Both the position numbers and the translations under genes were made by a program. Positions 1,588 to 59,229 of a stretch of 64,000 nucleotides of DNA are shown here, piece after piece. Below the pieces are notes generated by a model. That model was given only the letters and a program-made list of their open reading frames with translations, was not told the DNA's origin and ran no database searches. How positions within the stretch are numbered: the stretch's first letter is position 1; each line of letters starts with the position of its first letter. The stretch comes from Mollicutes bacterium (GTDB lineage: Bacteria > Bacillota_I > Bacilli_A > RF39 > UBA660), in assembly GCA_012837765.1 (NCBI GenBank), contig DUQO01000018.1, forward strand, positions 16,014 to 80,013, in the 5' to 3' direction.

Positions 1588-1806
1588 TCACCTCTATAAA
1601 AAAATCCCTATATTGCAAAAACATAAGGACGAATGATCGCGGTACCACCTTAATTCATAGTAATTACTATGCACTCAAACTTTAACGCAGTAAACGGTCT
1701 TATGACAGCTAAAGGGCCATTTTCCGCAAGTTTTATACTCTTTTTCACCACCCAAGAGTTCTCTATGATAAACACTTGTTTCTCTTCCTTTTCAAAGCCT
1801 TTCAAT
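1588..1806 (-). ncRNA. T-box riboswitch leader upstream of dut-metG
   Basis: Minus strand carries AATTAAGGTGGTACCGCG (T-box consensus AAUUAGGGUGGUACCGCG, 1 mismatch) at 1639-1656. F-box-like CCGTTTAC at 1691-1698. AGAGA and GGUGA stem I elements present. Terminator hairpin TCCTTAT...ATAGGGA plus T7 at 1598-1629 sits immediately before the dut RBS. Confidence 0.7.
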
Positions 1807-12201: not shown

Positions 12202-12220
12202 ATTTTCACCTTTTAAAAAA

Positions 12221-12296
12221 AAGACGCACACAAAAAGGGATTGTTAAGGCTGCTTTCTTCCGAATCTGACCTGATTCCAATATTTTTGTTGCGCCA
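12221..12296 (-). ncRNA. ffs: Small (4.5S-type) SRP RNA
   Basis: Minus strand AGGUCAGAUUCGGAAGAAAGCAGCC matches the SRP domain IV consensus AGGUCAGGUCCGGAAGGAAGCAGCC, with a compensatory closing pair around the GGAA tetraloop. 5' GGCGCAACAAAAA pairs with 3' UUUUUGUGUGCGUC, followed by a U-run. Confidence 0.6.
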
Positions 12297-12301
12297 TATA
12301 T

Positions 12302-12330
12302 AATATACATTATTTTGCCTAAAAATACAA
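12302..12330 (-). promoter_or_regulatory. Promoter for the SRP RNA (TTGTAT-17-tgTATATT, extended -10)
   Basis: Read on the minus strand: TTGTATttttaggcaaaataatgTATATT, 7 nt upstream of the GGCGC RNA 5' end. Confidence 0.5.
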
Positions 12331-12358: not shown

Positions 12359-12480
12359 ATTTCCCGGGAAATATTTCCTACACCTTTGTTAACAAATGGT
12401 AACCAGGTTGTTATTTTTACAATGTTTCACGTGAAACATTGTAGTAGTTTTTTGATTATATGTTTCACGTGAAACATATA
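12359..12480. promoter_or_regulatory. Cluster of perfect palindromes: AAATATTTCCCGGGAAATATTT, TTGTTAACAA, CAATGTTTCACGTGAAACATTG, ATATGTTTCACGTGAAACATAT
   Basis: Read directly from the sequence. Two copies of a 16-bp TGTTTCACGTGAAACA core lie 45 bp apart (centre to centre). Candidate operator sites. Confidence 0.5.
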
Positions 12481-12664: not shown

Positions 12665-15121
12665 TTCGTTGGTTTCCTCTTCTGTTTTTATTTCACCCTC
12701 TTCTTCAGTTTCTTCTTTTTCAACGTTAAAGCTTGTCGTTACTTTTTGTTCATCTTTTAAAGTAATCAATCTCACTCCTTGTGTTACTCTACTCATAATT
12801 GAAATTTGATCAATTGGTATTCTAATTACCATTCCACTATCTGTAATTATAATTAGATCTTGAGTTTCATCTACTACCTTAAAGGAAACTATTCCTCCAT
12901 TTTTATCTGTGCTATTTATTGTTTTAACTCCTTTGCTTCCTCTATGAGTTAAACGATATTCGCTAACTTTAGTTCTTTTACCATAACCGTTTTCTGTAAC
13001 AACTAACACTTCTTTTTCATCTTCTGCTATTTCGATTCCAACGCATTTTGAATCTCCTAAATTAATTCCTTTTACTCCAGAAGCAGTTCTTCCCATTATA
13101 CGAACTTCATCCTCATCGAATCGAACCATTCTTCCAGCTGAAGAGGCTAATAAAATTTGATCATTACCATTAGTTTTTCTTACCCCTATCAATTCATCTC
13201 CATCTTTAAGAGTGATAGCTATTTTTCCGCTAGAACGGATGTTTTCAAACTCTTTCATCTCTACTCGTTTGACTTGTCCGTTTCTTGTAGCAAAAATCAA
13301 ATTATAATCGTGTTCTTCTGCATGAACAGGGAGAACTGAGTTTACGTACTCATCAGATTCTATCGGTAAAATGTTTACTATTGGCAAACCTTTTGCTTGT
13401 CTACTGTACTCTGGTATTTCATATCCTTTTACTCGGTAAACTTTACCCTTATTAGTAAAGAATAAGAGATATTCATGAGTTGTCATTGTTACCAAATCTT
13501 GTACGAAATCTTCTTCATTAGTCGTCATTCCTTTAACACCAACACCACCTTTGTTTTGTAATTTATATGTGTCTGTTGGAATTCTTTTGATATATCCTTT
13601 ATTAGTAAGAGTAATTATTATATCTTCCACTGGAATAAGTGACTCATCTTCGATATATTCAATAGTCTCATTATCAATATAGGTTCTTCTCTCATCTCCA
13701 TATTTTTGTTTTATCTCAAGTAATTCGTTTTTCACAATTTCTAGAACCTTTTCTTCACTCGCTAATATTGATTTTAATTCGCTTATAAGTATTAATAAGT
13801 TTTTTAATTCCTCATCTATTTTTTCCCTTTCAAGGCCTGTCAATCTTCTCAATTTCATTTCTAGGATTGCTTCAGATTGAACATCAGTTAAACCAAATTT
13901 CTCCATCAAAGATTTTTTAGCAATAGCATCATCATTAGATGATTTTAATATTTTTATTATTTCGTCAATATGATCTAGTGCAATTTTCAATCCCTCTAAT
14001 ATATGAGCACGTTTTTCTGCCTTATCTAAATCAAATTGCGTTCTTCTATAAATAACTGTTCGTTGGAAATCAATATATTTTTCTATAATTTCTTTTAACC
14101 CAAACGTTCTTGGTTGTCCATCATGTAACATCAATAGATTTATACCATAACTAGTTTGTAATGGTGTATGTTTATATAGATTATTTAATATAACATTAGC
14201 TTTTGCGTCTCTTTTTAATTCTATTATTATCTTAACGCCATTTTTTACAGAAGATTCATCATATAAGTCAGATATTCCATCGATGACCTTATCTCTTACC
14301 AATTCTGCTATCTTTTTCTTTAAAGTTGTTTTATTTACTTTATATGGAATTTCTGTAATGACAATTTCTGATTTATTATTTTTTTCTACAATTTCAGCTT
14401 TCCCTCTGATTGTAATGGAACCCTTACCGGTTTCATAAGCTTTTTTGATACCACTATTACCTAAAATAATACCACCAGTTGGAAAATCTGGTCCTTTAAT
14501 ATGTTTCATCAATTCAAGAACATCTATATCGTGATTATCTATATAAGCCACGCATCCATCTATTACTTCAGATAAATTATGCGGTGGAATATTAGTTGCC
14601 ATTCCTACAGCAATTCCCATTGTCCCATTAACTAAAATGTTAGGAAATCTACTAGGTAATACCACTGGCTCCTTTTTCGTAGCATCAAAGTTATCTGTAA
14701 AATCAACAGTATTTTTATTAATATCTCTTAATAATTCAGTTGCTATTTTAGCTATACGAGCTTCGGTGTAACGATAAGCAGCTGCGCCATATCCGTCTAT
14801 TGAACCAAAGTTTCCGTGTCCATCAATCAATGGATATCTATAACTAAAATCTTGCGCCATTATTACAAGAGAATCATATGCTGCGGTGTCACCATGTGGG
14901 TGATAATTACCTATTACATTACCAACTGTTTTAGCGCTCTTCTGATATGGTTTTTCTGGTGTATAACCAGACTCATACATTGTATATAAAATTCTTCTGT
15001 GTACTGGTTTTAATCCATCTCTTAAATCGGGTAAAGCTCTAGATACAATAACGCTCATTGAATAATCCAAAAAGCTTTTTTCCATTTCTTTCGCTATGTT
15101 TACTTCGTATATTTTATCCAT
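12662..15121 (-). CDS. gyrA: DNA gyrase subunit A
   Basis: 819 aa with the active-site region AAMRYTEARIAKIA (Tyr) and an acidic C-terminal tail. Confidence 0.95.
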   Translation of the reverse strand: MDKIYEVNIAKEMEKSFLDYSMSVIVSRALPDLRDGLKPVHRRILYTMYESGYTPEKPYQKSAKTVGNVIGNYHPHGDTAAYDSLVIMAQDFSYRYPLIDGHGNFGSIDGYGAAAYRYTEARIAKIATELLRDINKNTVDFTDNFDATKKEPVVLPSRFPNILVNGTMGIAVGMATNIPPHNLSEVIDGCVAYIDNHDIDVLELMKHIKGPDFPTGGIILGNSGIKKAYETGKGSITIRGKAEIVEKNNKSEIVITEIPYKVNKTTLKKKIAELVRDKVIDGISDLYDESSVKNGVKIIIELKRDAKANVILNNLYKHTPLQTSYGINLLMLHDGQPRTFGLKEIIEKYIDFQRTVIYRRTQFDLDKAEKRAHILEGLKIALDHIDEIIKILKSSNDDAIAKKSLMEKFGLTDVQSEAILEMKLRRLTGLEREKIDEELKNLLILISELKSILASEEKVLEIVKNELLEIKQKYGDERRTYIDNETIEYIEDESLIPVEDIIITLTNKGYIKRIPTDTYKLQNKGGVGVKGMTTNEEDFVQDLVTMTTHEYLLFFTNKGKVYRVKGYEIPEYSRQAKGLPIVNILPIESDEYVNSVLPVHAEEHDYNLIFATRNGQVKRVEMKEFENIRSSGKIAITLKDGDELIGVRKTNGNDQILLASSAGRMVRFDEDEVRIMGRTASGVKGINLGDSKCVGIEIAEDEKEVLVVTENGYGKRTKVSEYRLTHRGSKGVKTINSTDKNGGIVSFKVVDETQDLIIITDSGMVIRIPIDQISIMSRVTQGVRLITLKDEQKVTTSFNVEKEETEEEGEIKTEEETNE

Positions 15122-47578: not shown

Positions 47579-48295
47579 ATGCTTCATTTTGTAATCTTTG
47601 ATGACAATGAGTTGATAAGAGAAAAAGTAAACAAAGTAATAACTAAATTAATGTTACCGACGGATATAGAATATAAAACGTTGGAATTTTCCAAATACAA
47701 TAAAAGTTTTGCTCAATTGATAGAAAGAAGAGGAGAAAAGAAAATATATATATTAGATATAGAAGTAGATTCTTACTCTGGTTTGGATGTTGCAAGAAAA
47801 ATAAGAGAGAGAGATTGGGAAAGCATTATAATAGTTTTAACAGCACATTATGAACTTGCATATGATGCCTTTAAAAATAGACTAATGTTGTTAGATTTTA
47901 TTTCAAAATTTGATAATTATGAACAAAATTTATATGATGTTTTAAAATTAGCATTAAAAGCATCACATGTTAAAAAACAATTTTCTTTTACTTCCAATAG
48001 AATGGCATATAGGGTTGATTACGATGATATTTTATATATTATCAAGGATACAGCAAAAAGAAATACAATTGTTAAAACTTTTTCTAAAGAATACCCTGTA
48101 TCACTTAACTTAAATGAAATAATGGCAATGTTGCCAGATAATTTTATTCAAACACATAGAGCATGTACAATTAATAGGGATAATGTAAAAACAATTGATT
48201 TTAAAGAAAACATTATAACATTTATTAATAATGAAAAAATATCAATGTTATCAAAAACATATAAGAAAGAAGTGAAAGAACATGTCTTTAGTTGA
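47579..48295 (+). CDS. LytTR-family response regulator (AgrA-like)
   Basis: Receiver with phospho-acceptor Asp in YILDIEVDS. C-terminal LytTR module ...ILYIIKDTAKRNTIV...QTHRACTIN. Confidence 0.8.
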   Translation: MLHFVIFDDNELIREKVNKVITKLMLPTDIEYKTLEFSKYNKSFAQLIERRGEKKIYILDIEVDSYSGLDVARKIRERDWESIIIVLTAHYELAYDAFKNRLMLLDFISKFDNYEQNLYDVLKLALKASHVKKQFSFTSNRMAYRVDYDDILYIIKDTAKRNTIVKTFSKEYPVSLNLNEIMAMLPDNFIQTHRACTINRDNVKTIDFKENIITFINNEKISMLSKTYKKEVKEHVFS

Positions 48296-49595
48296 TTTGA
48301 TTGGCCCCTCTTTTATCTTCAACATATTTCAACTAAAACTATCATCTGTAATAATAAAAGAAAAAATAGACTTTAAAAACGGAAAAAACATATTTTTATT
48401 TATACTTTTAATAGTAATGCTTTCCTTTTCAACTTTAGTTTTTAATAATTTTTTACGAGTGGTATTCAATTTCTTATGTTTGCTCTTTTTCTATTATTTT
48501 ATTCATAACAAAGGAATAAATGTAGCATTTATCGTTTCGTTTATTGCCTTCTTTTTATTTTTTATGTCAGAAATAATATTTTCTTCAATGTTATACTTTG
48601 TTAGTCAAATATGGGATATATCTATTGATATTGAAAAAAATACATTGCTATATTTAATATCAAATATATCAATTGGTTTTATGGCTATTATAATATATCG
48701 AATAAAAAAAATAAAACAAATTATTTTTACTTTGATTAAAAATTATGAAAAAACCAAATTTACTAAAACCATGTTGATAATACTAATGTTAATTTTTGTA
48801 TTAGTAAATAAAAATTTTTTATTGTTTGATTTTTATTTTGATTATCTTTTGAATCTATTTATTGTAGCGTTATTTTGCTTAATAGCTTATTTATTATTAA
48901 AGGAAAAAAATGCAAATGTGTCATTATCTAAAAAATATGATCAACTGTTTAGTTATTTAGAAAATTATGAAAAAGAACTTAATAAAAAAAGTATAATAAT
49001 TCATGAATTTAATAATCAACTAATTGCTATAAAAGGATTCAATGATAAGAAAAATAAGCATTTAGAACAATACCTAAATTCTATAATTAAAGATAATCAA
49101 AAGGGTGGAGAAAAGTTTCTTGATGATATGGAAAACCTTCCAAAGGGAGGATTAAAAGGATTAATTTATTATAAATTAGGATATCTGAAAGATGAAGGAA
49201 TTAATGTTGTAACTGATATTAGTTCAACTGTTAGAAAAAATGCCTTCGCTAAATTTGATCCTTCTTTATATAGAGATATTTTAAAAATAGTAGGTGTGTT
49301 GTTAGATAATGCTGTAGAGGCTGCAAAAGAATCAAAAGAAAAGCAAATATCATTAGAAATCTTTTGTACTAAAAATGATTTTAATATTGTATTATCTAAT
49401 ACCTTTTGTAATAATATTGATCTTGAAAAAATAGATGAATCAAAATATTCGACAAAAGGTAAGGATAGGGGATATGGACTTGCATTAGTAAAGCAAATAG
49501 TTAAAGATAATCCTAAATTGCAAGTTAAAAAAGAAATAATTAATAATTTCTTTGTTTCGACATTAACAATTGAACTAAAAAACACTTCTAATTAG
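48282..49595 (+). CDS. AgrC-like (HPK10) membrane sensor histidine kinase
   Basis: Six N-terminal TM helices, H-box IIIHEFNNQLIAIKG, GHKL motifs LLDNAVEA and GYGLALV. Confidence 0.7.
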   Translation: MSLVDLIGPSFIFNIFQLKLSSVIIKEKIDFKNGKNIFLFILLIVMLSFSTLVFNNFLRVVFNFLCLLFFYYFIHNKGINVAFIVSFIAFFLFFMSEIIFSSMLYFVSQIWDISIDIEKNTLLYLISNISIGFMAIIIYRIKKIKQIIFTLIKNYEKTKFTKTMLIILMLIFVLVNKNFLLFDFYFDYLLNLFIVALFCLIAYLLLKEKNANVSLSKKYDQLFSYLENYEKELNKKSIIIHEFNNQLIAIKGFNDKKNKHLEQYLNSIIKDNQKGGEKFLDDMENLPKGGLKGLIYYKLGYLKDEGINVVTDISSTVRKNAFAKFDPSLYRDILKIVGVLLDNAVEAAKESKEKQISLEIFCTKNDFNIVLSNTFCNNIDLEKIDESKYSTKGKDRGYGLALVKQIVKDNPKLQVKKEIINNFFVSTLTIELKNTSN

Positions 49596-49611
49596 ATAGA
49601 AGTGTTTTTTA
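49578..49611. terminator. Bidirectional terminator between the convergent kinase and agrD
   Basis: Perfect 13-bp inverted repeat AAAAACACTTCTA / TAGAAGTGTTTTT. Confidence 0.65.
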
Positions 49612-49616
49612 GATTA

Positions 49617-49751
49617 TTATTCTATTATTGATTTTGGTGCTTCTGGTTCATCAAACCAAAAAAGAATGCATCCAACATGAGCAGCATTAGAAGCAAGTAA
49701 GCCAACTACTGCTGCAAAGCGTCCTATAATCTTTAGTGTCCTCTTTTTCAT
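49617..49751 (-). CDS. agrD: AgrD-like autoinducing peptide precursor (44 aa)
   Basis: My translation MKKRTLKIIGRFAAVVGLLASNAAHVGCILFWFDEPEAPKSIIE: amphipathic leader, conserved Cys, C-terminal DEPEAPK tail (compare S. aureus ...CDFIMDEVEVPKEL). RBS GGGAGGAATATT. Below the ORF-track cutoff. Confidence 0.7.
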   Translation of the reverse strand: MKKRTLKIIGRFAAVVGLLASNAAHVGCILFWFDEPEAPKSIIE

Positions 49752-49784
49752 AATATTCCTCCCTTCTCATTCTTTATCAAATCA

Positions 49785-50390
49785 TCATTTTTTTTGATGA
49801 TATGATTTGTAGTTGTTATATGGTAAATTTAGTAATCTATATGAAATGGGTATTATTAGTAAAGATTCAATTACTAATGAAAATATAAGGCAATTTGATA
49901 CTAAGTTATTGCTTATAAAAAATGACAACAAACCATAAAAAATAGCTGTCAAAGAAGAAAGTAATTTATATTTTTTTCTTCTTTTTTTATTTATTAGTGG
50001 TCGTTTATGAGTGTCTGCAGGAGCATATAAAATAATAATAATAAAGCAAATAATAAAAATTAATATTTTTATAAATAAATTTATTACTAATACTGAGGCT
50101 AAATAAGATGTAAAAATAAAAACACTACCAGATAAAAACAAACAAATTCTGCTATTAGGAGCATGCAATCCAAAAGCATATAATCTAATACCACTAAATA
50201 TAATTGTTAATAACAAAAATTCTTTTAAAAGATTTAGAAAAAAACTGACTGTAACAAAAAGTATTGTTTTTCCAAGTAACAAGTATATTGCTTCTAAACC
50301 ATAACTAATTTTTTCGATATGTATATTGTTGTATGAGTTGTCATTTTTTTCTATCACCATAAGTAACTTATTTATAACTGCATTTTTCAT
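49785..50390 (-). CDS. agrB: AgrB-like membrane peptidase/cyclase
   Basis: Catalytic region FGLHAPNSRICLF (His/Cys) and YAPADTHKRP, 201 aa polytopic membrane protein. Confidence 0.8.
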   Translation of the reverse strand: MKNAVINKLLMVIEKNDNSYNNIHIEKISYGLEAIYLLLGKTILFVTVSFFLNLLKEFLLLTIIFSGIRLYAFGLHAPNSRICLFLSGSVFIFTSYLASVLVINLFIKILIFIICFIIIILYAPADTHKRPLINKKRRKKYKLLSSLTAIFYGLLSFFISNNLVSNCLIFSLVIESLLIIPISYRLLNLPYNNYKSYHQKK

Positions 50391-51609: not shown

Positions 51610-54114
51610 ATGATGAAAATGGGTTTTCTTAAAAGTGTTTTTAATCATGAATACAGGGAACTAAAAAAATTTAATGCTATTGCTACTAAAGTAGATGAGT
51701 TAGATAGTGTTATGCAGAAACTATCTGATTATGAATTAAAGGCTAAAACAAATGAATTTAAAGAGAGATTGGCAAATGGTGAAACACTAGATGATTTATT
51801 AGTTGAAGCTTTTGCGGTAGTAAGAGAAGCGGCGTTTCGTACTATAAAAGAAAAACCATATTTTGTACAAATTTTAGGTGGTATTACAATTCACTATGGT
51901 AATATTGCTGAAATGAAAACAGGTGAAGGAAAAACCTTATCTTTAACAATGCCTGCTTATTTAAATGCATTAACAGGTGAGGGTGTACATGTTATTACAG
52001 TAAACGAATATCTAGCTAGTTTTCATGCTGGATGGATGGGACAAATATTTGAATTTCTTGGTTTAACTGTAGGTGTTAATTTACGAGAATTAGACTTTGA
52101 AGAAAAGAAAAATGTATACAATTGCGATATCATGTATACAACAAATAGTGAGTTAGGTTTTGACTATTTAAGAGATAACATGGTAGTAAATAAAGAAAGA
52201 AGAGTTCAAAGAGGACTCAATTTTGCAATCGTTGACGAGGTTGACTCAATTTTAATAGATGAAGCACGTACTCCACTAATAATTTCTGGTGGCTACATGA
52301 AATCTTTAAATTTATACAAAGATGCTGATATGTTTGCAAAAACATTGCGTGAAAATGAAGGTTATATAAAAGATGAAAAAACCAATGCTATTAGTTTAAC
52401 AGAAGAAGGTTCAATCAAAGCTGAAAATTATTTTAAAATTGAAAACTTATATGATATTAAACATTCAGCTCTAGTTCATCATATAAACCAAGCTATTAAA
52501 GCTAATTTTGGTATGAAAAAAGATGTGGATTATGTTGTACAAGATGACGAAGTGGTAATAGTAGATCAATTTACCGGACGTCTAATGAAAGGACGAGCTT
52601 TTAGTGAGGGATTACATCAAGCTATAGAAGCAAAAGAAGGAGTAACAATAAAAGAAGAAACTCGTACTTTAGCAACAATTACTTTTCAGAATTTATTTAG
52701 AATGTATAAAAAGTTATCAGGTATGACTGGTACTGCAAAAACAGAAGAAGAGGAATTTAGAAACATATATAACATGTATGTTATTCAAATACCTACAAAT
52801 AGACCAGTTATAAGAAAAGACTTGCCAGATTTAATATATACAAACAAAGAAGGAAAATACAATGCAATTATTCGTGTTATACAAGAATGTTATAAAAATG
52901 GTCAACCAGTTTTAGTAGGAACTATTGCTATTGAAACAAGTGAACTTATTAGCAATACGTTACGAAAAAAGAAAATACCACATGAAGTATTAAATGCTAA
53001 AAACCACGCGAGAGAAGCTGAAATTATAGCTAAAGCAGGAGAAAAAGGTGCAGTTACTATTGCAACTAACATGGCTGGTCGTGGAACGGATATCAAATTA
53101 GGAGAAGGAGTTAAGGAACTAGGTGGTTTATTTGTTATAGGTACTGAACGTCATGAATCAAGACGTATTGATAACCAATTAAGAGGTCGTGCAGGACGTC
53201 AAGGAGACCCTGGCGTTTCCCAATTCTTTGTCTCGTTAGAAGATGATATCATGGTTCGTTTTGGTTCTGATAGAATTAAAGGAATGATGCAGTCTTTAGG
53301 TTTTGGTGGGGATCAAGCAATTCGTAGTAAGATGTTTACAAATGCTATGGAAACAGCCCAAAAGAGAGTAGAAGGATATAACTTTGATATTAGAAAACAA
53401 TTACTTCAATATGATGATGTCATGAACAGACAAAGAGAAATAATATATGAAAAAAGAAATAGTATTTTAGATGAAGATTCAATTCATGACTATATATTGA
53501 AAAGTATAATGGATTATATAGAAAGATTAGTATTTAGTCATTTAATAGAAGAAAAAGTATTAACATTAAACGATAAATCAGAGATTATTGAAGCTGTAAA
53601 TGAAAATTTATTAAAGAACGACAGAATGTCAGTTGATGATATAAAAGAAGATGATGAAAATACAATAGTAAGAAAAATATATGAAAAAGTAATACATGAT
53701 TATGAGCAAAAAATAAAAGATCTGCCAAATGATATAATCAACGATTTTGAAAAAGCAATTCATTTAAATGTTATCGATAGACATTGGATGGAACATATTA
53801 ATACAATGGAACATTTAAGAGAAGGAATAGGTTTAAGGGGTTACGCTCAAGAAAACCCTCTTCAAGCTTATGTTTCAGAAGGATTTGCTCTATTTGAAGA
53901 AATGTTAGCTAGAATTGATGAACAAACAACAATATATATATTGAAGGCAGAAATAAAACAAAATTTAGAGACTAAAGAAGTTGCAAATATAGCTACTAAT
54001 GAAGATAAGAGTAAAACAATAAAGAGACAACCAAAAAAAGTAAATAAGATAGGAAGAAATGAGCCTTGCCCATGTGGCAGTGGCAAGAAGTATAAACAAT
54101 GTTGTGGTAAATAA
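51610..54114 (+). CDS. secA: Preprotein translocase ATPase SecA
   Basis: 834 aa with DEAD-motor motifs and the C-terminal zinc motif CPCGSGKKYKQCCGK. Confidence 0.95.
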   Translation: MMKMGFLKSVFNHEYRELKKFNAIATKVDELDSVMQKLSDYELKAKTNEFKERLANGETLDDLLVEAFAVVREAAFRTIKEKPYFVQILGGITIHYGNIAEMKTGEGKTLSLTMPAYLNALTGEGVHVITVNEYLASFHAGWMGQIFEFLGLTVGVNLRELDFEEKKNVYNCDIMYTTNSELGFDYLRDNMVVNKERRVQRGLNFAIVDEVDSILIDEARTPLIISGGYMKSLNLYKDADMFAKTLRENEGYIKDEKTNAISLTEEGSIKAENYFKIENLYDIKHSALVHHINQAIKANFGMKKDVDYVVQDDEVVIVDQFTGRLMKGRAFSEGLHQAIEAKEGVTIKEETRTLATITFQNLFRMYKKLSGMTGTAKTEEEEFRNIYNMYVIQIPTNRPVIRKDLPDLIYTNKEGKYNAIIRVIQECYKNGQPVLVGTIAIETSELISNTLRKKKIPHEVLNAKNHAREAEIIAKAGEKGAVTIATNMAGRGTDIKLGEGVKELGGLFVIGTERHESRRIDNQLRGRAGRQGDPGVSQFFVSLEDDIMVRFGSDRIKGMMQSLGFGGDQAIRSKMFTNAMETAQKRVEGYNFDIRKQLLQYDDVMNRQREIIYEKRNSILDEDSIHDYILKSIMDYIERLVFSHLIEEKVLTLNDKSEIIEAVNENLLKNDRMSVDDIKEDDENTIVRKIYEKVIHDYEQKIKDLPNDIINDFEKAIHLNVIDRHWMEHINTMEHLREGIGLRGYAQENPLQAYVSEGFALFEEMLARIDEQTTIYILKAEIKQNLETKEVANIATNEDKSKTIKRQPKKVNKIGRNEPCPCGSGKKYKQCCGK

Positions 54115-54160
54115 CCTCGCAAAGCCCCATAAAATAAGGGCTCGTGAGGTTTTTTCTTTT
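54113..54160 (+). terminator. Terminator after secA
   Basis: ACCUCGCAAAGCCCC...AAGGGCUCGUGAGGU followed by a U6 run. Confidence 0.65.
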
Positions 54161-54318
54161 TTCAAAAAGTTGTACTTTTTACTCAAAAGGTGCTTCTACA
54201 TACGTTTTACATACGAATTTTTCGGTGATTTTGAGCATAATCCTGACAAATTAATTGTAAAAAATATGATATAATTAAATAGACAAATAGTAATTTGTAA
54301 AACGATCGGAAGTGAATC

Positions 54319-55032
54319 ATGAATCAAGAAAAGTTTGGTAAATTTATAAAAGAAATAAGAAAGAAAAATAATTTAACACAAAAACAATTAGCAGATAAAT
54401 ATAATGTTACTTATCAAGCAGTTAGTAAATGGGAAAACGGAAGAAATATGCCTGATACTACACTGATAAAACAAATGAGCAATGATTTTGATATTAGTTT
54501 AGAAGAAATGTTTGAGGGAGAGTTAAAAGAAAACAAAAATAGTAAACAAAACAAGAAAAATATAATTCTTATATCTCTACTAATAATATGTTTAATAGTT
54601 ATATTTATTTTATCAATAAATTTTCAAAATAATAATGGTAATTTTAATTTTAAAACTTTATCTAGTAATTGTGATAATTTCAATATTTCAGGAAACATTG
54701 CATACAATGATAAAAAAACTTCTATTTATATTTCTAATATAAAGTATTGTGGAGGTAACGATACTACTGAATATAAAGAAATTGAATGTGTATTATATGA
54801 ATCAAATAATGACATTGAGAAAAAAATAAGTTCTTGTAATTATAAGGAAGAAAAAAATATTACATTAGAAAATTTTTTACAAACTGTTACCTTAACTGTT
54901 GATAATTATAAAAAAATTTGTAAGGAATATTCTGAAAATAGTTTATTTTTATCAATTAATGCAACAGATAATAACGGAAAGATTACTACTTACAAAATTC
55001 CATTGACATTAGAACAAAGCTGCTCTAATTAA
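54319..55032 (+). CDS. XRE-family HTH regulator with single TM and Cys-containing extracytoplasmic domain
   Basis: N-terminal HTH KNNLTQKQLADKYNVTYQAVSKWENG, TM segment IILISLLIICLIVIFILSI, C-terminal domain with 6 Cys. Confidence 0.6.
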   Translation: MNQEKFGKFIKEIRKKNNLTQKQLADKYNVTYQAVSKWENGRNMPDTTLIKQMSNDFDISLEEMFEGELKENKNSKQNKKNIILISLLIICLIVIFILSINFQNNNGNFNFKTLSSNCDNFNISGNIAYNDKKTSIYISNIKYCGGNDTTEYKEIECVLYESNNDIEKKISSCNYKEEKNITLENFLQTVTLTVDNYKKICKEYSENSLFLSINATDNNGKITTYKIPLTLEQSCSN

Positions 55033-55102
55033 ACTCAACTGAATGTTGAGTTTTTTCAACTCTTTCGTTATAGAAAATTTAATTAAATAATTTTATAATG
55101 AA

Positions 55103-55801
55103 ATGGAAAGGAGCAAAATTTTTATGAAAAAAATATTTTTTACAATTACAATGGCATGTATATTGTGTCTAGGTGTGTGTGCTTGTACAGCTAATACCGA
55201 ATTAAAGAAATTGCCAAATCCAGAAATAACGGAAGGAATACGAGGAGAACAATTTGGTATAGATAAGAACATTAATGAGGAAACAATTGATGAATATCTT
55301 AATAGACCCGATAGTGTGTATCGTGATATGAGAATGCTTAAAGATCCAGGTAATTATGAAGCGATTGGAGGAGATTCTTATCTTTCTGGTTTTGTAAAAG
55401 GATTTGAAGTAGTGCCATATCCATTATTAGTAAATGTTATAGGATTACCAGAAGAAGTTGGTGATACCTATACAGGAAAAACATTATATACATTAAACGA
55501 TAATGGGAAATACATTGCAAATTATGAAGAATCACTTGAAATCTTAGAATATTATTTTCCTAAAGATAAAAATATATTTTTAATGTGCGGTGGTGGAGGT
55601 TATGCTGGAATGACTAAAACTATGTTAGTATCACTTGGATGGGACGAAAATAAAATTTATAATGTTGGTGGATATTGGTATTATGAAGGAACTAATAATG
55701 TAGAAGTGAAAAAAACAAACTCTGATAACTCAATATCATATGATTTTTGGAAAGTAGTTTATCATGATATTGATTTTGATAATTTACATGAGGTAAAATA
55801 A
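55103..55801 (+). CDS. Lipoprotein, possibly rhodanese-like fold
   Basis: Signal/lipobox MACILCLGVCAC. IFLMCGGGGYAG...KIYNVGG resembles the rhodanese CxxGxR...VYNLxGG blocks, but the Arg is replaced. Confidence 0.4.
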   Translation: MERSKIFMKKIFFTITMACILCLGVCACTANTELKKLPNPEITEGIRGEQFGIDKNINEETIDEYLNRPDSVYRDMRMLKDPGNYEAIGGDSYLSGFVKGFEVVPYPLLVNVIGLPEEVGDTYTGKTLYTLNDNGKYIANYEESLEILEYYFPKDKNIFLMCGGGGYAGMTKTMLVSLGWDENKIYNVGGYWYYEGTNNVEVKKTNSDNSISYDFWKVVYHDIDFDNLHEVK

Positions 55802-56664
55802 TGAAAAAATTAATATTTTTTTCACTTACTATGATTTTTTGTTTGTTATTAGTTGGATGTAATAATAAACAAGATACATTTTCTTTAGATAAAGAATATT
55901 ATCAAAATAATTCGTTTAATGAATTAGATAAAAATACATTTGATGATTTAATTAACAATAAAAAATCTTTTGCTATATTTATATATCAACCGTTATGTAC
56001 AACTTCTTATGAATTTAATAAAATTTTAACTGAGTTCGCTAATCAATATCAAATAAGTTTTTACAAGATGTCATTTTCTGATATGAAGGAAACTGAGTTA
56101 AAGGAATATATTAAATATTATCCATCTTTAGTAATTTATCATGAAGGAGAAATAGTAGATTATTTAGATGCCAATAGAGATTCAGATAGTGAATATTATA
56201 AAAGTGTTGATGGATTTAAAAAGTGGTTTTCTAATTATGTGTCAATTCAAAAAAAGAATGATAATGATAATTTGATTTTAGAGGAAGAAACTAATAATGA
56301 TACAAAAATTGATGCAAAGTTAGAAGATATTGTATATGATGAAAATAAAGTAAATATTTATTTCTTTTGGGGTAATGGATGCCCTCATTGTGAAGAAGAA
56401 TTCAAATTTTTGAAAAGTATTGAAACTGAATATGGAAATTATTTTACATTGAATACATTTGAAGTCTGGTATAGTAAAGATAATGCGGAAATATTAGAGC
56501 AATTTGCTAATGCTATGGGAGATGAAGTAAAAGGTGTTCCATATACCATTATTGGGAATAAAACATTTTCAGGATTTAGTAAAAATTATGAAGAACAATT
56601 TTTAAATGCTATAAAAGAGCAATATCATAATAGTTATGATGTTTATTTTGATAAAACACAATGA
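55801..56664 (+). CDS. Lipoprotein with thioredoxin/DsbA-like CPHC motif
   Basis: Lipobox LLLVGC. WGNGCPHCEEEF is a CxxC redox motif (CPHC as in DsbA). TAATG overlap with the upstream gene. Confidence 0.55.
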   Translation: MKKLIFFSLTMIFCLLLVGCNNKQDTFSLDKEYYQNNSFNELDKNTFDDLINNKKSFAIFIYQPLCTTSYEFNKILTEFANQYQISFYKMSFSDMKETELKEYIKYYPSLVIYHEGEIVDYLDANRDSDSEYYKSVDGFKKWFSNYVSIQKKNDNDNLILEEETNNDTKIDAKLEDIVYDENKVNIYFFWGNGCPHCEEEFKFLKSIETEYGNYFTLNTFEVWYSKDNAEILEQFANAMGDEVKGVPYTIIGNKTFSGFSKNYEEQFLNAIKEQYHNSYDVYFDKTQ

Positions 56665-57048
56665 CAAATTACAATTTATCTAACTATAAACAGTTGAAAT
56701 TAGTGTTTTTTACATACATTTTTACATACGTTCTGTAGAGTTTGGTGTTCAAATTTTAGTTGTAGAAAATACAAATTCTTTGTAATTTCAACAAGAAATT
56801 TGTAAAAATTGCAGAAAAATTGCAGATTCTACACCATGTGGCTCAGGTAAAAAATATAAACAATGTTGTGGAAAATAACTTGCAAACCCACATAAAATAA
56901 TAAAAATATCGATTAGACTCATTTTATATTTGATGTTGTGGTTTTAGTTTTTAATTTTAAAAGGTGATCATAAAATATATAATGAATTTATGATATAATT
57001 GTAAGTATGAGAAAATGACAAATAATAATTTGAAAGGGAGTTGATTTT

Positions 57049-57204
57049 ATGAAAAAGAAAAAATTATTATATGCAATTACTTGTGCTTTAGGAAGTGGAA
57101 TGATAGGATTTTTTGCAGCAGATTTAAATGAGGTATATAGAATAGCATTATTTACTATTGGAGTTGTTTTAATGGTAAGTTCAATTATAAAATTAAGTAA
57201 ATAA
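57049..57204 (+). CDS. Small membrane peptide (51 aa)
   Basis: My translation MKKKKLLYAITCALGSGMIGFFAADLNEVYRIALFTIGVVLMVSSIIKLSK. RBS AAAGGGAG, upstream TGATATAAT. Confidence 0.3.
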   Translation: MKKKKLLYAITCALGSGMIGFFAADLNEVYRIALFTIGVVLMVSSIIKLSK

Positions 57205-57449
57205 ATAGTAATTTGAAAGTGAGATAATAGACGGAAGATAAGCAAATATTGCTTGATAATATAAATAAAGTACATACTAAATAATAAATTACAATTTATC
57301 AATTAGATTATCAATAAATTTTGATAGTCTTTTTTTTGTTCAACTTCAGATTGGTTGTGGTAGAAAGGTTAAACATTGTTTATTTAAAATTCCAAATTTA
57401 AAGGATTTTAAAAAATATGATATAATTTTAAATAGAGGAGACTTTAATT

Positions 57450-57554
57450 ATGAAAATTATTACGAAAGAAAAAGCTTATGTTCAATTAAAAGACATTGTG
57501 GAGTTGTTGAATCTTCTTTCAGGACTCCCTGGTTATGGCCTTATTCAGTTATAA
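57450..57554 (+). CDS. Small peptide (35 aa) with strong promoter and RBS
   Basis: My translation MKIITKEKAYVQLKDIVELLNLLSGLPGYGLIQL. RBS AGAGGAGA, extended -10 TGATATAAT at 57416-57428. Confidence 0.25.
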   Translation: MKIITKEKAYVQLKDIVELLNLLSGLPGYGLIQL

Positions 57555-58072
57555 AAAAGTGTTATGGAGAAGTATTAATTTGTACAAAAAATAATATGTA
57601 TGAATTTATAGAGTTTACAGATAAAGACACGATTAACTTTTTTAATAACCTTGATCATATTGCTGACTATTATCAGTTAAAGGATTTAAATGAAGAAGAA
57701 CTAATTAATTATGCTCAATCAATTGTTGAAGAAACCAAAAAATTAATAAAAAAATATAATTTTATGTCTAACAAAGAAAAATCGAAAAAATATTGCCGTA
57801 TAAAAAAACAGTGTGACAAAATGATTATAAAATTAATTCTATTAGAGATGTTTTATGGTTTAAACAAGGGTATCTAGATTTTGAATTACCAGTGGAAGCA
57901 GAGTATCCAATAGATTATGATATGAATAAGATTGAGAAATCAAAGAGTATAAAAAAATTAGCAAAATCACTATTTAACAAAAACAAACATAGATAAAGGT
58001 ATAAAAAGACAAGTGGTTAACAATTAAAAACTTTTTGTATTGTACAAAAGGTTTTTCTTTGTATACTATATG

Positions 58073-58100
58073 TTGAAAAAGGGATTATCCATGGTATAAT
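58073..58100 (+). promoter_or_regulatory. prfB promoter (TTGAAA-16-tgGTATAAT)
   Basis: Read directly from the sequence. Confidence 0.5.
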
Positions 58101-58115
58101 TATATTGGTGATAAT

Positions 58116-59229
58116 ATGGAAATGAAACAAATAAAACAAGAGTTTGAAACATATAAAAATGAAATTGAAGAAATATGGAGGCTTCTTTGACTTAACAGAA
58201 AAGGAAGAAAAAATTAAAGAATTAACTATTCAAATGAACAATCCAGACTTTTGGAATGATAAAGAAAAAGCAGAGAAAATAATCGAAGAATGTAATAATC
58301 TTAAAACAATTGTTGGGAATGTATCGACATTAAAAAAGACTATAAACGACAATATAGAAATGATAGAAATGTTGGATGAAGAACCAAATGATGAAATAGT
58401 TAGTATAATTGAGGCAGAAATGCCAGGTATAGAAAAGAAACTTGATGATCTTAGGCTAGAAGTAATATTGAATGAACCATATGATAAGAATAATGCTTTA
58501 CTAGAAATTCATGCAGGGGCAGGTGGAACAGAGTCTTGTGATTGGGCTAGTATGCTTATGCGTATGTATTTAAGATGGTGTGATGTAAAATCTTATAAAT
58601 ACGAGATACTAGATGTACAAAACGGAGATGAAGCTGGAATAAAAAGAGCTAATATCTTAATAAAAGGGTTTAATGCATATGGATATTTAAAAGGGGAAAA
58701 AGGAGTTCATCGATTAGTTCGTATCTCACCTTTTGATGCTAATAAAAGACGTCATACATCTTTTGCAGCAATTGAAGTTATACCACAAATAGATGATAGT
58801 ATTGAAGTTGAACTAAAGGATTCAGAACTAAAGATAGACGTATATCGTAGCAGTGGTGCTGGTGGACAATCAGTAAATACAACAGACAGTGCGGTAAGAA
58901 TCACGCATCTACCTACTGGAGTTGTTGTAACATGTCAAAACGAACGTAGTCAGATTAAAAATAAGGAAAAAGCTCTTCAAGTATTAAAAAGTAAATTATA
59001 TCAATTGGAATTAGAAAAAAGAGATAAATCCTTATCAGTAATGAAAGGAAATCTTTCCGAAATTAATTTTGGATCGCAAATAAGATCCTATGTTATGCAT
59101 CCTTATATGATGGTTAAAGATCATCGCACGGAAGAAGAAACAAGTAATGTTTTGAAAGTATTAGATGGGGATATAGATATGTTTATAGAAAAGTATTTGA
59201 AGGGGCGAATTAGTAATGAAAAAAAATAA
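58116..59229 (+). CDS. prfB: Peptide chain release factor 2, with programmed +1 frameshift at CTT TGA C (58185-58191)
   Basis: Frame 0 reads MEMKQIKQEFETYKNEIEEIWRLL then TGA. SD-like GGAGG sits 3 nt upstream of CTT TGA C. The +1 frame continues DLTEKEEKIKEL...SPF...GGQ through 59229. Parallels B. subtilis ...DFRGSL*DLESKE... Confidence 0.85.

Follow-up and report, generated by a model that had tools for sequence, protein, structure and literature searches.

The window analyzed here is a 64,000-nucleotide chromosomal piece of an uncultured bacterium (contig DUQO01000018.1; G+C content 26–28%), from a metagenome-assembled genome (MAG) labelled 'Mollicutes bacterium' at NCBI. Gene secA ends on its plus strand at position 54114 (stop codon 54112–54114), and prfB starts on the same strand at 58117 and carries the canonical CTT TGA C +1 frameshift site at 58186–58192, preceded by an AGG AGG-like GGAGG. 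The 4002-bp gap between both genes, in which all genes lie on the plus strand, holds a cassette of three genes, encoding a transmembrane regulator of the XRE family, a rhodanese-like lipoprotein and a lipoprotein with two thioredoxin-fold domains, then a second copy of the secA 3' end and a stretch of small open reading frames (ORFs). NCBI proteins HHT38005–HHT38010 are every one annotated as hypothetical, apart from the helix-turn-helix (HTH) regulator. A previous sequence-only reading had described the interval as an accessory cassette, acquired or assembled by recombination and perhaps devoted to thiol or sulfur chemistry outside the membrane. The analysis presented here points to a decayed integrative island that would have entered at the 3' end of secA and then lost its integrase.

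Relatives useful for comparison came from a search with the SecA protein (89, 85 and 81% identity); a genome scan based on prfB gave only distant ones, at 61% or less. In two of these relatives, L179 (SecA 81%) and L181 (85%), the order hpf-secA-prfB-yitT-yitT-ftsE-ftsX is kept and the secA-prfB gap, with one small unrelated ORF in it, measures 349–650 bp, versus 4002 bp in the window. Synteny with L179 extends further, to agrB and CSD upstream and to uvrB-uvrA downstream. In blastn alignments to L179, window positions 53800–54160 and 58090–58362 match either side of the gap, and 54161–58089 is specific to the window; homology to relatives is thus resumed at 58090, which sets the end of the island just upstream of the prfB −10. 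The interval 54161–58089 (ca. 3.9 kb) is inserted DNA between secA and prfB, in agreement with the insertion of about 4 kb proposed earlier. An interval common to all relatives, which would have spoken for an ancestral state, was not found: L179 and L181 have short gaps, and L180 (SecA 89%) has other cargo past secA, namely genes for a DUF3781 protein, a GyrI-like protein, a glyoxalase and PadR. In phytoplasma genomes secA and prfB are adjacent. In four more distant Bacilli MAGs (L001, L003, L006 and L011), prfB-yitT-yitT-ftsE is kept and no secA is found within 3–10 kb upstream, indicating that the secA-prfB link was broken repeatedly in the group.

The left end of the island falls at the tail of secA. 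Positions 54070–54137 (copy A) recur at 56834–56900 (copy B) with 83.8% identity over 68 nt (E 8.9e-15 within the window), which bears out the decayed duplicate of the secA 3' end reported before. Both copies start with the octamer CCATGTGG, which at 54070–54077 (plus strand), the left edge of copy A, lies in the SEC-C zinc-finger codons (P-C-G) of secA, and which is the putative core or crossover site. The segment that follows in copy A (54078–54160, plus strand) consists of the last 12 codons of secA and an intrinsic terminator (arms 54115–54127 and 54138–54149, then a T-run), and would represent a replacement secA tail, the island-borne half of attL. Copy B belongs to an attR-like relic (56834–56935, plus strand) made up of the core CCATGTGG, what appears to be a displaced older secA tail, half of the old terminator (its left side) and an older arm repeat in decayed form, TAGACTCATTT. 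Whereas the terminator of secA folds at −18.7 kcal/mol (z −4.6), copy B, of which only the left terminator arm is kept, forms no hairpin. It reads ..TPCGSGKKYKQCCGK* and has no start codon, on which ground its candidacy as a small SEC-C peptide gene was rejected. To the left of the core, copy A runs on into secA and copy B is preceded by unrelated DNA with the tandem 11-mer AAAAATTGCAG x2 (56804–56826, plus strand), 7 nt left of the second core copy.

Two further tandem repeats are placed inside the two cores. The 11-bp repeat TACATACGTTT/TACATACGAAT (54197–54216, plus strand) is a putative arm-type site on the P' arm, and the second TACATAC tandem repeat (56707–56729, plus strand) would be its counterpart on the P arm of the same element; the former stands 127 bp to the right of core A, the latter 105 bp to the left of core B. 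These are the sole two good copies of TACATAC-N-TACATAC in the 64 kb, so the twofold occurrence described in the sequence-only reading (ca. 54197 and 56711) holds. With a fixed-spacing TACATAC pattern, for which 0.1 matches are expected by chance, the only exact match was the copy at 56711. A role of the TACATAC repeats as a conserved operator of the three genes was considered and rejected, since they are absent from every other locus with this trio, that of L174 among them. Antisense ORFs of 44–84 amino acids run over both secA-tail copies (53868–54186 and 56788–56922, minus strand), and one of them is called as a gene in the public annotation of L081; most likely they are mirror images of SEC-C codons and not genes.

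Octamer CCATGTGG is also a breakpoint in other genomes. Strains L178 and L180 of a sister species are 99–100% identical over 3.7 kb up to CCATGTGG, then about 80% identical and then unrelated, and their point of divergence is the exact start of the repeat copies in the window, which makes it a shared breakpoint. In L178, the sequence from position 12459 after secA resembles on visual inspection a T-box-type leader and then breaks off at a scaffold gap; in L180, the DUF3781/GyrI-like/glyoxalase/PadR island follows from that position. Searched with a pattern for the SEC-C tail, IMG/VR yielded three prophage contigs, L191, L193 and L197, all encoding a 376-amino acid tyrosine integrase (PF00589, E 1.3e-24) directly 3' of the secA tail; in L191 the integrase is followed by a CI-like repressor, SSB and further phage genes. 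In the two flanks inspected, L191 and L197, TAGATACCTTT x2 lies between the secA tail and the integrase, abutting the integrase stop, in a position analogous to that of TACATACGTTT/TACATACGAAT in the window.

Most secA flanks that were lined up have one architecture: stop codon, terminator, about 45 nt and two tandem 11-mers. The latter are TAGATACCTTT x2 in L191 and L197, TAGAACCATTT x2 in L178, TAGATCCATTT/TAGATCCACTT in L180, TACATACGTTT/TACATACGAAT in copy A of the window and the decayed TAGACTCATTT in copy B. At the same position L126 has three TTGTCCAC repeats, and L181, whose flank may be an unoccupied site, has none. Past its repeats, L126 carries a 59-amino acid fragment resembling an integrase arm-binding domain (a weak match: PF14657, E 0.008; a PHROG family of unknown function, 2e-8), transposase and insertion sequence (IS) debris and then a rhodanese-thioredoxin pair. 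The two tail copies of the window differ in their affinities. Copy B, to the right of the core and in its flank, resembles the closest relative, L178 (Ser codon TCA, AACT.GCAAACCCA, AAAATA.CGATTAGA..CATTTTA), and copy A carries GGTAAATAACCTCGCAAA, which is common to the distant L126 and not to the closest relatives. Direct repeats with one copy native-like and the other foreign are the pattern expected of an element recombining at CCATGTGG.

Between the two att relics lies solely the 2.4-kb three-gene cassette. Its first gene (54319–55032, plus strand) encodes a protein of 237 amino acids with an N-terminal HTH (HTH_3 Pfam match, E 1.8e-16), one transmembrane helix and a beta-rich ectodomain with five conserved cysteines (C118, C144, C157, C201 and C235), as the earlier description of a Cys-rich, sensor-like membrane XRE protein had it. 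In the AlphaFold2 (AF2) model (mean confidence, pLDDT, 85.5), the HTH covers residues 1–66, a helix spans 73–103 with a hydrophobic stretch at 82–100, and the beta-rich domain takes up 110–228. DNA-binding domain, transmembrane helix and extracytoplasmic domain are thus predicted in one chain, the layout of a transmembrane regulator. No fold was assigned to the ectodomain by search. The XRE gene stands upstream of the two lipoprotein genes in 22 of 65 loci.

The second gene (55124–55801, plus strand) encodes a lipoprotein of 225 amino acids with a divergent rhodanese-like domain and a lone invariant cysteine, Cys155, in the loop LMCGGGGYAG. The protein has no match in Pfam, NCBIfam or PDB sequences: the rhodanese family PF00581 gave none directly even at E up to 10, only one of 39 close homologues reached it (E 0.15), and a profile search of PDB sequences found no rhodanese. 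The assignment comes instead through intermediates. The family comprises 5487 homologues in 343 clusters at 50% identity, the best 120 of the 5487 being 74–98% identical to the window protein, and its profile, run against 1.8 billion proteins, reaches P0339, P0384 and P0388 at E 3e-22 to 5e-16. Over the same residues, PF00581 matches these intermediates with 54.7 and 27.2 bits (threshold 22.2) and, just under it, 21.1 bits. Their loops (CQSGGRI, CESGNKA, CAKGGRV, CAGGTRA) line up by eye with LMCGGGGYAG on the basis of shared FLMC and KIYN(I/V)GG motifs. As in the Pfam rhodanese loop, the cysteine that would be catalytic opens the loop, after a beta strand and before a helix; the usual loop arginine is a tyrosine here and Cys155 is invariant. 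The lipoprotein is thus shown by transitive homology to carry a divergent single-cysteine rhodanese-like domain with the predicted catalytic cysteine kept, and the term rhodanese-like lipoprotein used in the sequence-only reading was apt.

The third gene (55801–56664, plus strand) is translationally coupled to the second, as had been noticed, its start overlapping the preceding stop by 1 nt (TAATG). It encodes a lipoprotein of 287 amino acids with two thioredoxin-fold domains. Domain 1, with the motif CTTS, matches PF00085 (E 2.4e-10; 40.8 bits against a cut-off of 23.5), and in several relatives it also receives weak PedC-like marks (PF20207). Domain 2, with the motif CPHC, gives weak Thioredoxin_2/3 matches. 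The earlier label of a CPHC, DsbA-like lipoprotein stands as regards the motif and the thioredoxin fold and falls as regards the family: the DSBA profile gave no match at E up to 0.1, and only the CPHC motif is common to the DsbA family. The first cysteine of domain 1 is kept in all aligned thioredoxin-fold partners, as CxxS, CxxC or Cx5C, and the CPHC domain is optional. In L149 (3398–4698), the two-domain gene is followed by an extra free-standing second (CPxC) domain, an S-adenosylmethionine synthetase-like gene and prfB.

Both proteins are predicted from their signals to be lipidated. The rhodanese-like protein has the lipobox ..LGVCAC and its partner ..LLVGC; Cys21 is kept in at least 90% of the homologues, and two members match LPAM_1. 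Of 67 non-redundant loci that could be evaluated, 60 have a thioredoxin-fold gene directly after the rhodanese gene, and in P0241 the rhodanese-like domain is fused to a thioredoxin domain. Other members are fused to SLH or Big_2 surface domains, to PAP2 (the membrane phosphatase fusions P0247 and P0252) or to FMN_bind, all of them extracytoplasmic contexts. In P0301, P0309 and P0341, tandem rhodanese-like domains are joined to FMN_bind, the substrate domain of ApbE flavinylation, a hint that electrons may be passed to extracellular rhodanese domains; a literature search found no paper linking rhodanese to flavinylated systems. Conservation of the lipoprotein exceeds that of housekeeping proteins when the same genomes are compared: SecA is 64% identical in L126 and the lipoprotein 79%, and PrfB is 52% identical in L149 and the lipoprotein 67%. 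Searches of plasmid, phage and IMG/VR data gave no match to it, and it is not known phage or plasmid cargo.

The bounds of the cassette are sharp. At its left end (54243–54298, plus strand) there is a promoter-like site with −35 CTGACA and the extended −10 TATGATATAAT, followed by the palindrome ACAAATAGTAATTTGT; at its right end (56664–56680, plus strand) lies the near-palindrome ACAAATTACAATTTAT(C). The right end and positions 54280–54298 form a 19-nt imperfect inverted repeat. Neither a duplication at the outer edges of this repeat nor a transposase was found, both of which would be expected of a transposon or a miniature inverted-repeat transposable element. In L174 the trio lies between trpF and a GTPase gene, in unrelated flanks, and window positions 54263–56679 are 93.8% identical to it at the nucleotide level, homology giving out only a few bases from the −10 at the left end and from ACAAATTACAATTTAT at the right end. 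Housekeeping DNA is only 79% identical to that of the nearest sister species, which argues that the cassette moved within the genus or was exchanged. The trio, or the pair, was found in a different gene context in every relative examined. The word accessory does not hold in the sense of rare: the module is very widespread and unusually conserved, with the 5487 homologues given above, and only its location differs per genome.

The 1.15 kb past the second att relic contains small ORFs specific to the species, of which one is frameshifted, together with a collapsed, gene-less copy of the cassette ends (57169–57300, plus strand), made of the leader (57169–57245) and the tail (57280–57300). A hydrophobic ORF of 51 amino acids (56989–57204, ORF 57049–57204, plus strand), found in the same species only, has a promoter-like −10, the leader palindrome CAAATAATAATTTG and a ribosome-binding site. 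An ORF of 34 amino acids (57416–57554, ORF 57450–57554, plus strand), also with a promoter-like −10 and a ribosome-binding site, has no homologue beyond the species. At 57596–57996 (plus strand), a pair of 93 and 34 amino acids corresponds to a single, intact 133-amino acid ORF in L082, which shows that the window copy is frameshifted. Searches of Pfam, NCBIfam and PHROGs gave no family match for the small ORFs or the 133-amino acid ORF. The island ends before a promoter-like site of prfB (TTGAAA-16-TATAAT, near consensus, 58073–58100), which with the first prfB frame up to the programmed frameshift covers 58073–58191 on the plus strand.

The remaining repeats of the interval also survive alignment, and together with secA-tail copies that behave as attL and attR around core CCATGTGG they dispel the suspicion that the repeats might vanish on closer comparison. 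The 15-mer AAATTACAATTTATC occurs in exact copies at 56666 and 57286, as stated before. The three-copy promoter module of the sequence-only reading is real as to its copies, TATGATATAATT being exact at 54265, 56989 and 57416, and does not hold as a trait of the interval: the same sequence occurs elsewhere in the window at 1812 (minus strand) and 46342 (plus strand), and is thus the organism's extended −10 consensus rather than an island-specific repeat. The palindrome ACAAAT-N4-ATTTGT occurs twice in exact form in the window, each time after a −10. As an XRE operator it was kept as a lead only, being conserved just in close relatives and present before an unrelated gene of L180. The leader motif around it, RAYAAATAGTAATTTG (palindromic CAAAT-N4-ATTTG), is found at 54283–54298, 57018–57033 and 57203–57215 and at 12669–12690 of L180. 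It is placed between the −10 and the ribosome-binding site of the XRE gene and of the 51-amino acid ORF, and in L180 before the island gene for DUF3781; it may serve as an operator, or island genes may have this leader in common.

The composition of the island shows no G+C anomaly, and an Rfam scan of the window gave no match inside the interval. The only Rfam matches in the window, unrelated to the island, are a T-box leader (1622–1804, minus strand) and a small signal recognition particle RNA (12208–12305, minus strand). Just upstream of CSD-hpf-secA there is an agr-type quorum-sensing locus (47579–50390) made up of a LytTR response regulator (47579–48295), a histidine kinase (48282–49595) and AgrB (49785–50390, minus strand); a small AgrD-like ORF is called beside AgrB in L082, and the agr locus is kept in L179 and L180.

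In our reading, the interval is what is left of an integrative island at the 3' end of secA that has decayed and has no integrase, with attL and attR relics nested in it, and it carries a cassette for thiol chemistry outside the membrane; we give both parts together a probability of about 0.68. Insertion by site-specific integration at the secA 3' end and later loss of the integrase is the most likely course of events. The locus displays what is expected of an integrative element: direct repeats derived from the target, an intact secA, a restored terminator, a site used by the integrase-bearing L191, L193 and L197, and polymorphic occupancy (L126, L178 versus L180, L179/L181). The att-like tail copies around CCATGTGG, and the relatives that lack the interval, likewise uphold the earlier idea of acquired or recombinationally assembled DNA. 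In the proposed mechanism, tyrosine-integrase elements of this lineage would recombine at or beside CCATGTGG in the SEC-C zinc-finger codons. With it, each element would bring a terminator, two 11-bp arm-type repeats and its own version of the final 12 secA codons, and the prior tail would be displaced downstream. The attP of the element found here would measure about 280 bp, with TACATAC arm sites, themselves putative, on both arms. Its attL would run from 54070 to about 54220 (new tail, terminator, TACATAC x2) and its attR-like relic from about 56700 to 56935 (TACATAC x2, core, old tail, half terminator), the displaced earlier tail coming probably from an older L191-type relic. Loss of the integrase would have fixed the structure, or left it at most mobilisable in trans.

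Several observations weigh against this reading. No integrase was detected in the interval with Pfam, NCBIfam and PHROGs, the transposase being likewise absent as already noticed, nor in the 64-kb window by tblastn with the L191 integrase as single query. IMG/VR contained no intact element with the P arm and core of the window, or with TACATAC arms, and its six TACATAC matches had no detectable L191-type integrase or secA tail. The island-free L179 has a degenerate 11-bp repeat past its terminator, so that the repeat could be native flank and not an element arm. Trio loci of other genomes are without att-like flanks or recombinase, which leaves room for another entry route into an att scar, and there is partial linkage to the same neighbours in the distant L126 (secA...rhodanese-thioredoxin) and L149 (rhodanese-thioredoxin...prfB). 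On the side of the cassette, the structure model of the rhodanese-like lipoprotein is poor (pLDDT 60) and this protein lacks a direct Pfam match, the operator-like palindrome is conserved only in close relatives, and no electron or sulfur donor, CcdA/DsbD-like partner or substrate was found.

In a different history, the att relics and the trio would stem from unrelated events: a prophage or island would have integrated at the secA tail and been mostly deleted, and the trio would have landed later in the scar or replaced the interior by a mechanism of its own, such as recombination at its palindromic ends. We consider this unlikely, yet it is the rival to be taken most seriously. It would explain why the cassette ends are sharp and common to L174, where no att-like sequence flanks them, why a 19-nt imperfect inverted repeat bounds the cassette, why a gene-less leader and tail copy lies at 57169–57300, and why the trio occurs at many loci with no recombinase nearby. 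It has to contend with the finding that the arms enclose exactly the cassette and nothing more and with the lack of transposase and target-site duplication; the leader motif, found in L180 before an island gene of another kind as well, may be generic rather than a site of recombination. An ancestral interval, from which the trio was deleted or moved in relatives and in which the secA-tail copy arose by local duplication, is very improbable. The rhodanese-thioredoxin pair does lie about 1.9 kb downstream of secA in L126 and about 1.8 kb upstream of prfB in L149, but gaps are short in the closest syntenic relatives, cargo differs in the sister species, where strain polymorphism starts at the same octamer, integrase prophages occupy the same site, the trio is found elsewhere at 94% nucleotide identity, and secA adjoins prfB in phytoplasmas.

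That the window comes from a MAG raises the question of a chimeric contig, produced by assembly or binning. The chance of this is close to nil: L081, L082 and the window, three assemblies made independently in different projects, have the layout and its junctions in common at 99.4–100% identity, which excludes misassembly; the L082 contig runs from hpf-secA through the island, and two Logan assemblies also cover the trio. The last alternative concerns function. The pair could be a maturation or immunity helper for a secreted disulfide peptide, as for a PedC/Bta-like bacteriocin, or serve Etrx-like reductive repair, rather than a rhodanese-driven relay. The weak PedC-like marks on thioredoxin domain 1 in several relatives, the small hydrophobic peptide ORFs and agr-type locus nearby, and the precedent of surface thioredoxin lipoproteins that repair oxidised proteins (PMC3914529) all lean that way, but the small ORFs are not conserved alongside the trio, the constant partner is the rhodanese and not a peptide gene, and among the loci with Pfam-annotated neighbours no bacteriocin transporter, MsrAB or CcdA gene was linked. 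We regard this alternative as improbable.

For the cassette, the conserved pairing and the fusions with a thioredoxin-fold protein sustain, at the domain level, the thiol/sulfur-redox role suggested before. It probably does thiol or sulfur chemistry, and judging from its domains it could be an extracytoplasmic thiol/persulfide relay under a redox-sensing membrane regulator. The lipid-anchored single-Cys rhodanese would take up sulfane sulfur or be oxidised on Cys155, to a persulfide or a sulfenate. The sulfur or the oxidation would be passed to, or resolved by, the nucleophilic cysteine of thioredoxin domain 1 in the partner lipoprotein, and the CPHC domain would swap disulfides with exported substrates. 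The membrane XRE regulator would read the redox state outside through its five ectodomain cysteines and control the operon. Such chemistry could run towards oxidative folding, sulfane-sulfur handling or reductive repair.

These results have two kinds of bearing. The secA tail with core CCATGTGG is put forward as an attachment site for prophages and islands in poorly known uncultured Bacilli, which would help to delimit mobile DNA in MAGs and would account for the broken secA-prfB pair, otherwise conserved; literature searches found no report of secA as an integration or attachment site, which is not proof that none exists. As to the proteins, a large family annotated only as hypothetical and lacking a Pfam model, with its 5487 homologues, receives a first assignment, as predicted lipid-anchored single-cysteine rhodaneses. 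In anaerobic Gram-positives without DsbB or quinones, the rhodanese-thioredoxin pair and its Cys-bearing membrane regulator are a concrete candidate for thiol chemistry outside the membrane.

The island can be compared to known integrative elements. A lambda-type attP has arm-type sites, and elements inserted at 3' ends of conserved genes bring a substitute for that end; derivatives that lack the integrase and lie between att sites, known as cis-mobilizable elements (CIMEs), have been described for integrative and conjugative elements (ICEs) of Streptococcus. With tyrosine-integrase islands and CIMEs the window shares direct repeats of the target-gene tail, restoration of frame and terminator, a breakpoint common to independent insertions, tandem short repeats on both arms and relatives with an integrase at the same site. 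It differs from them in having no integrase, in the content, which is one 2.4-kb operon, and in repeats that are only 84% alike, which points to an old event or to heterologous tails.

The regulator recalls the transmembrane transcription regulators ToxR, CadC and TcpP, in which a cytoplasmic DNA-binding domain, a single transmembrane segment and an extracytoplasmic sensor are combined, often with an exported partner (PMC10269533). The one-chain plan is the same, with a DNA-binding domain of the XRE/Cro-C1 type here and not of the winged-helix OmpR type. Periplasmic cysteines act as sensor in ToxR and CadC. Among lipoproteins, the surface thioredoxin-family proteins Etrx1 and Etrx2 of Streptococcus pneumoniae act outside the membrane in the repair of oxidised proteins (PMC3914529). 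Both cases involve thioredoxin-fold proteins predicted or known to be lipid-anchored outside the membrane, but Etrx works with MsrAB2, whereas a rhodanese is the conserved partner here, with neither an Msr nor a CcdA gene linked to it. Etrx proteins also work with CcdA. For rhodaneses, a cytoplasmic precedent is GlpE, a single-domain enzyme whose persulfide is resolved by thioredoxin. By comparison, the pair described here would act outside the membrane, its active-site loop is without basic residues and the partner is often single-Cys.

PspE, the periplasmic single-Cys rhodanese of E. coli, can together with DsbC partly replace DsbA/DsbB (PMC5403849). As in that case, a single-Cys rhodanese outside the cytoplasm would work with a thioredoxin-fold protein. 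Unlike PspE and DsbC, the proteins of the cassette are encoded in an operon with translational coupling, and some species have them fused; the rhodanese is a predicted lipoprotein with the Arg-less loop CGGGGYA, the first domain of its partner is of the CxxS, CxxC or Cx5C type, and the activity is a predicted one. On this basis we advance, tentatively and with low confidence, that the rhodanese-thioredoxin pair could be a dedicated extracytoplasmic relay for thiol oxidation or persulfides that needs neither quinone nor DsbB and is XRE-switched via extracellular cysteines, in anaerobic low-GC Bacilli of guts and digesters. If so, a conservation that exceeds that of SecA in comparisons of the same genomes would point to a core envelope function, and the pair would do naturally, in hard-wired form, what the PspE-DsbC bypass does in E. 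coli.

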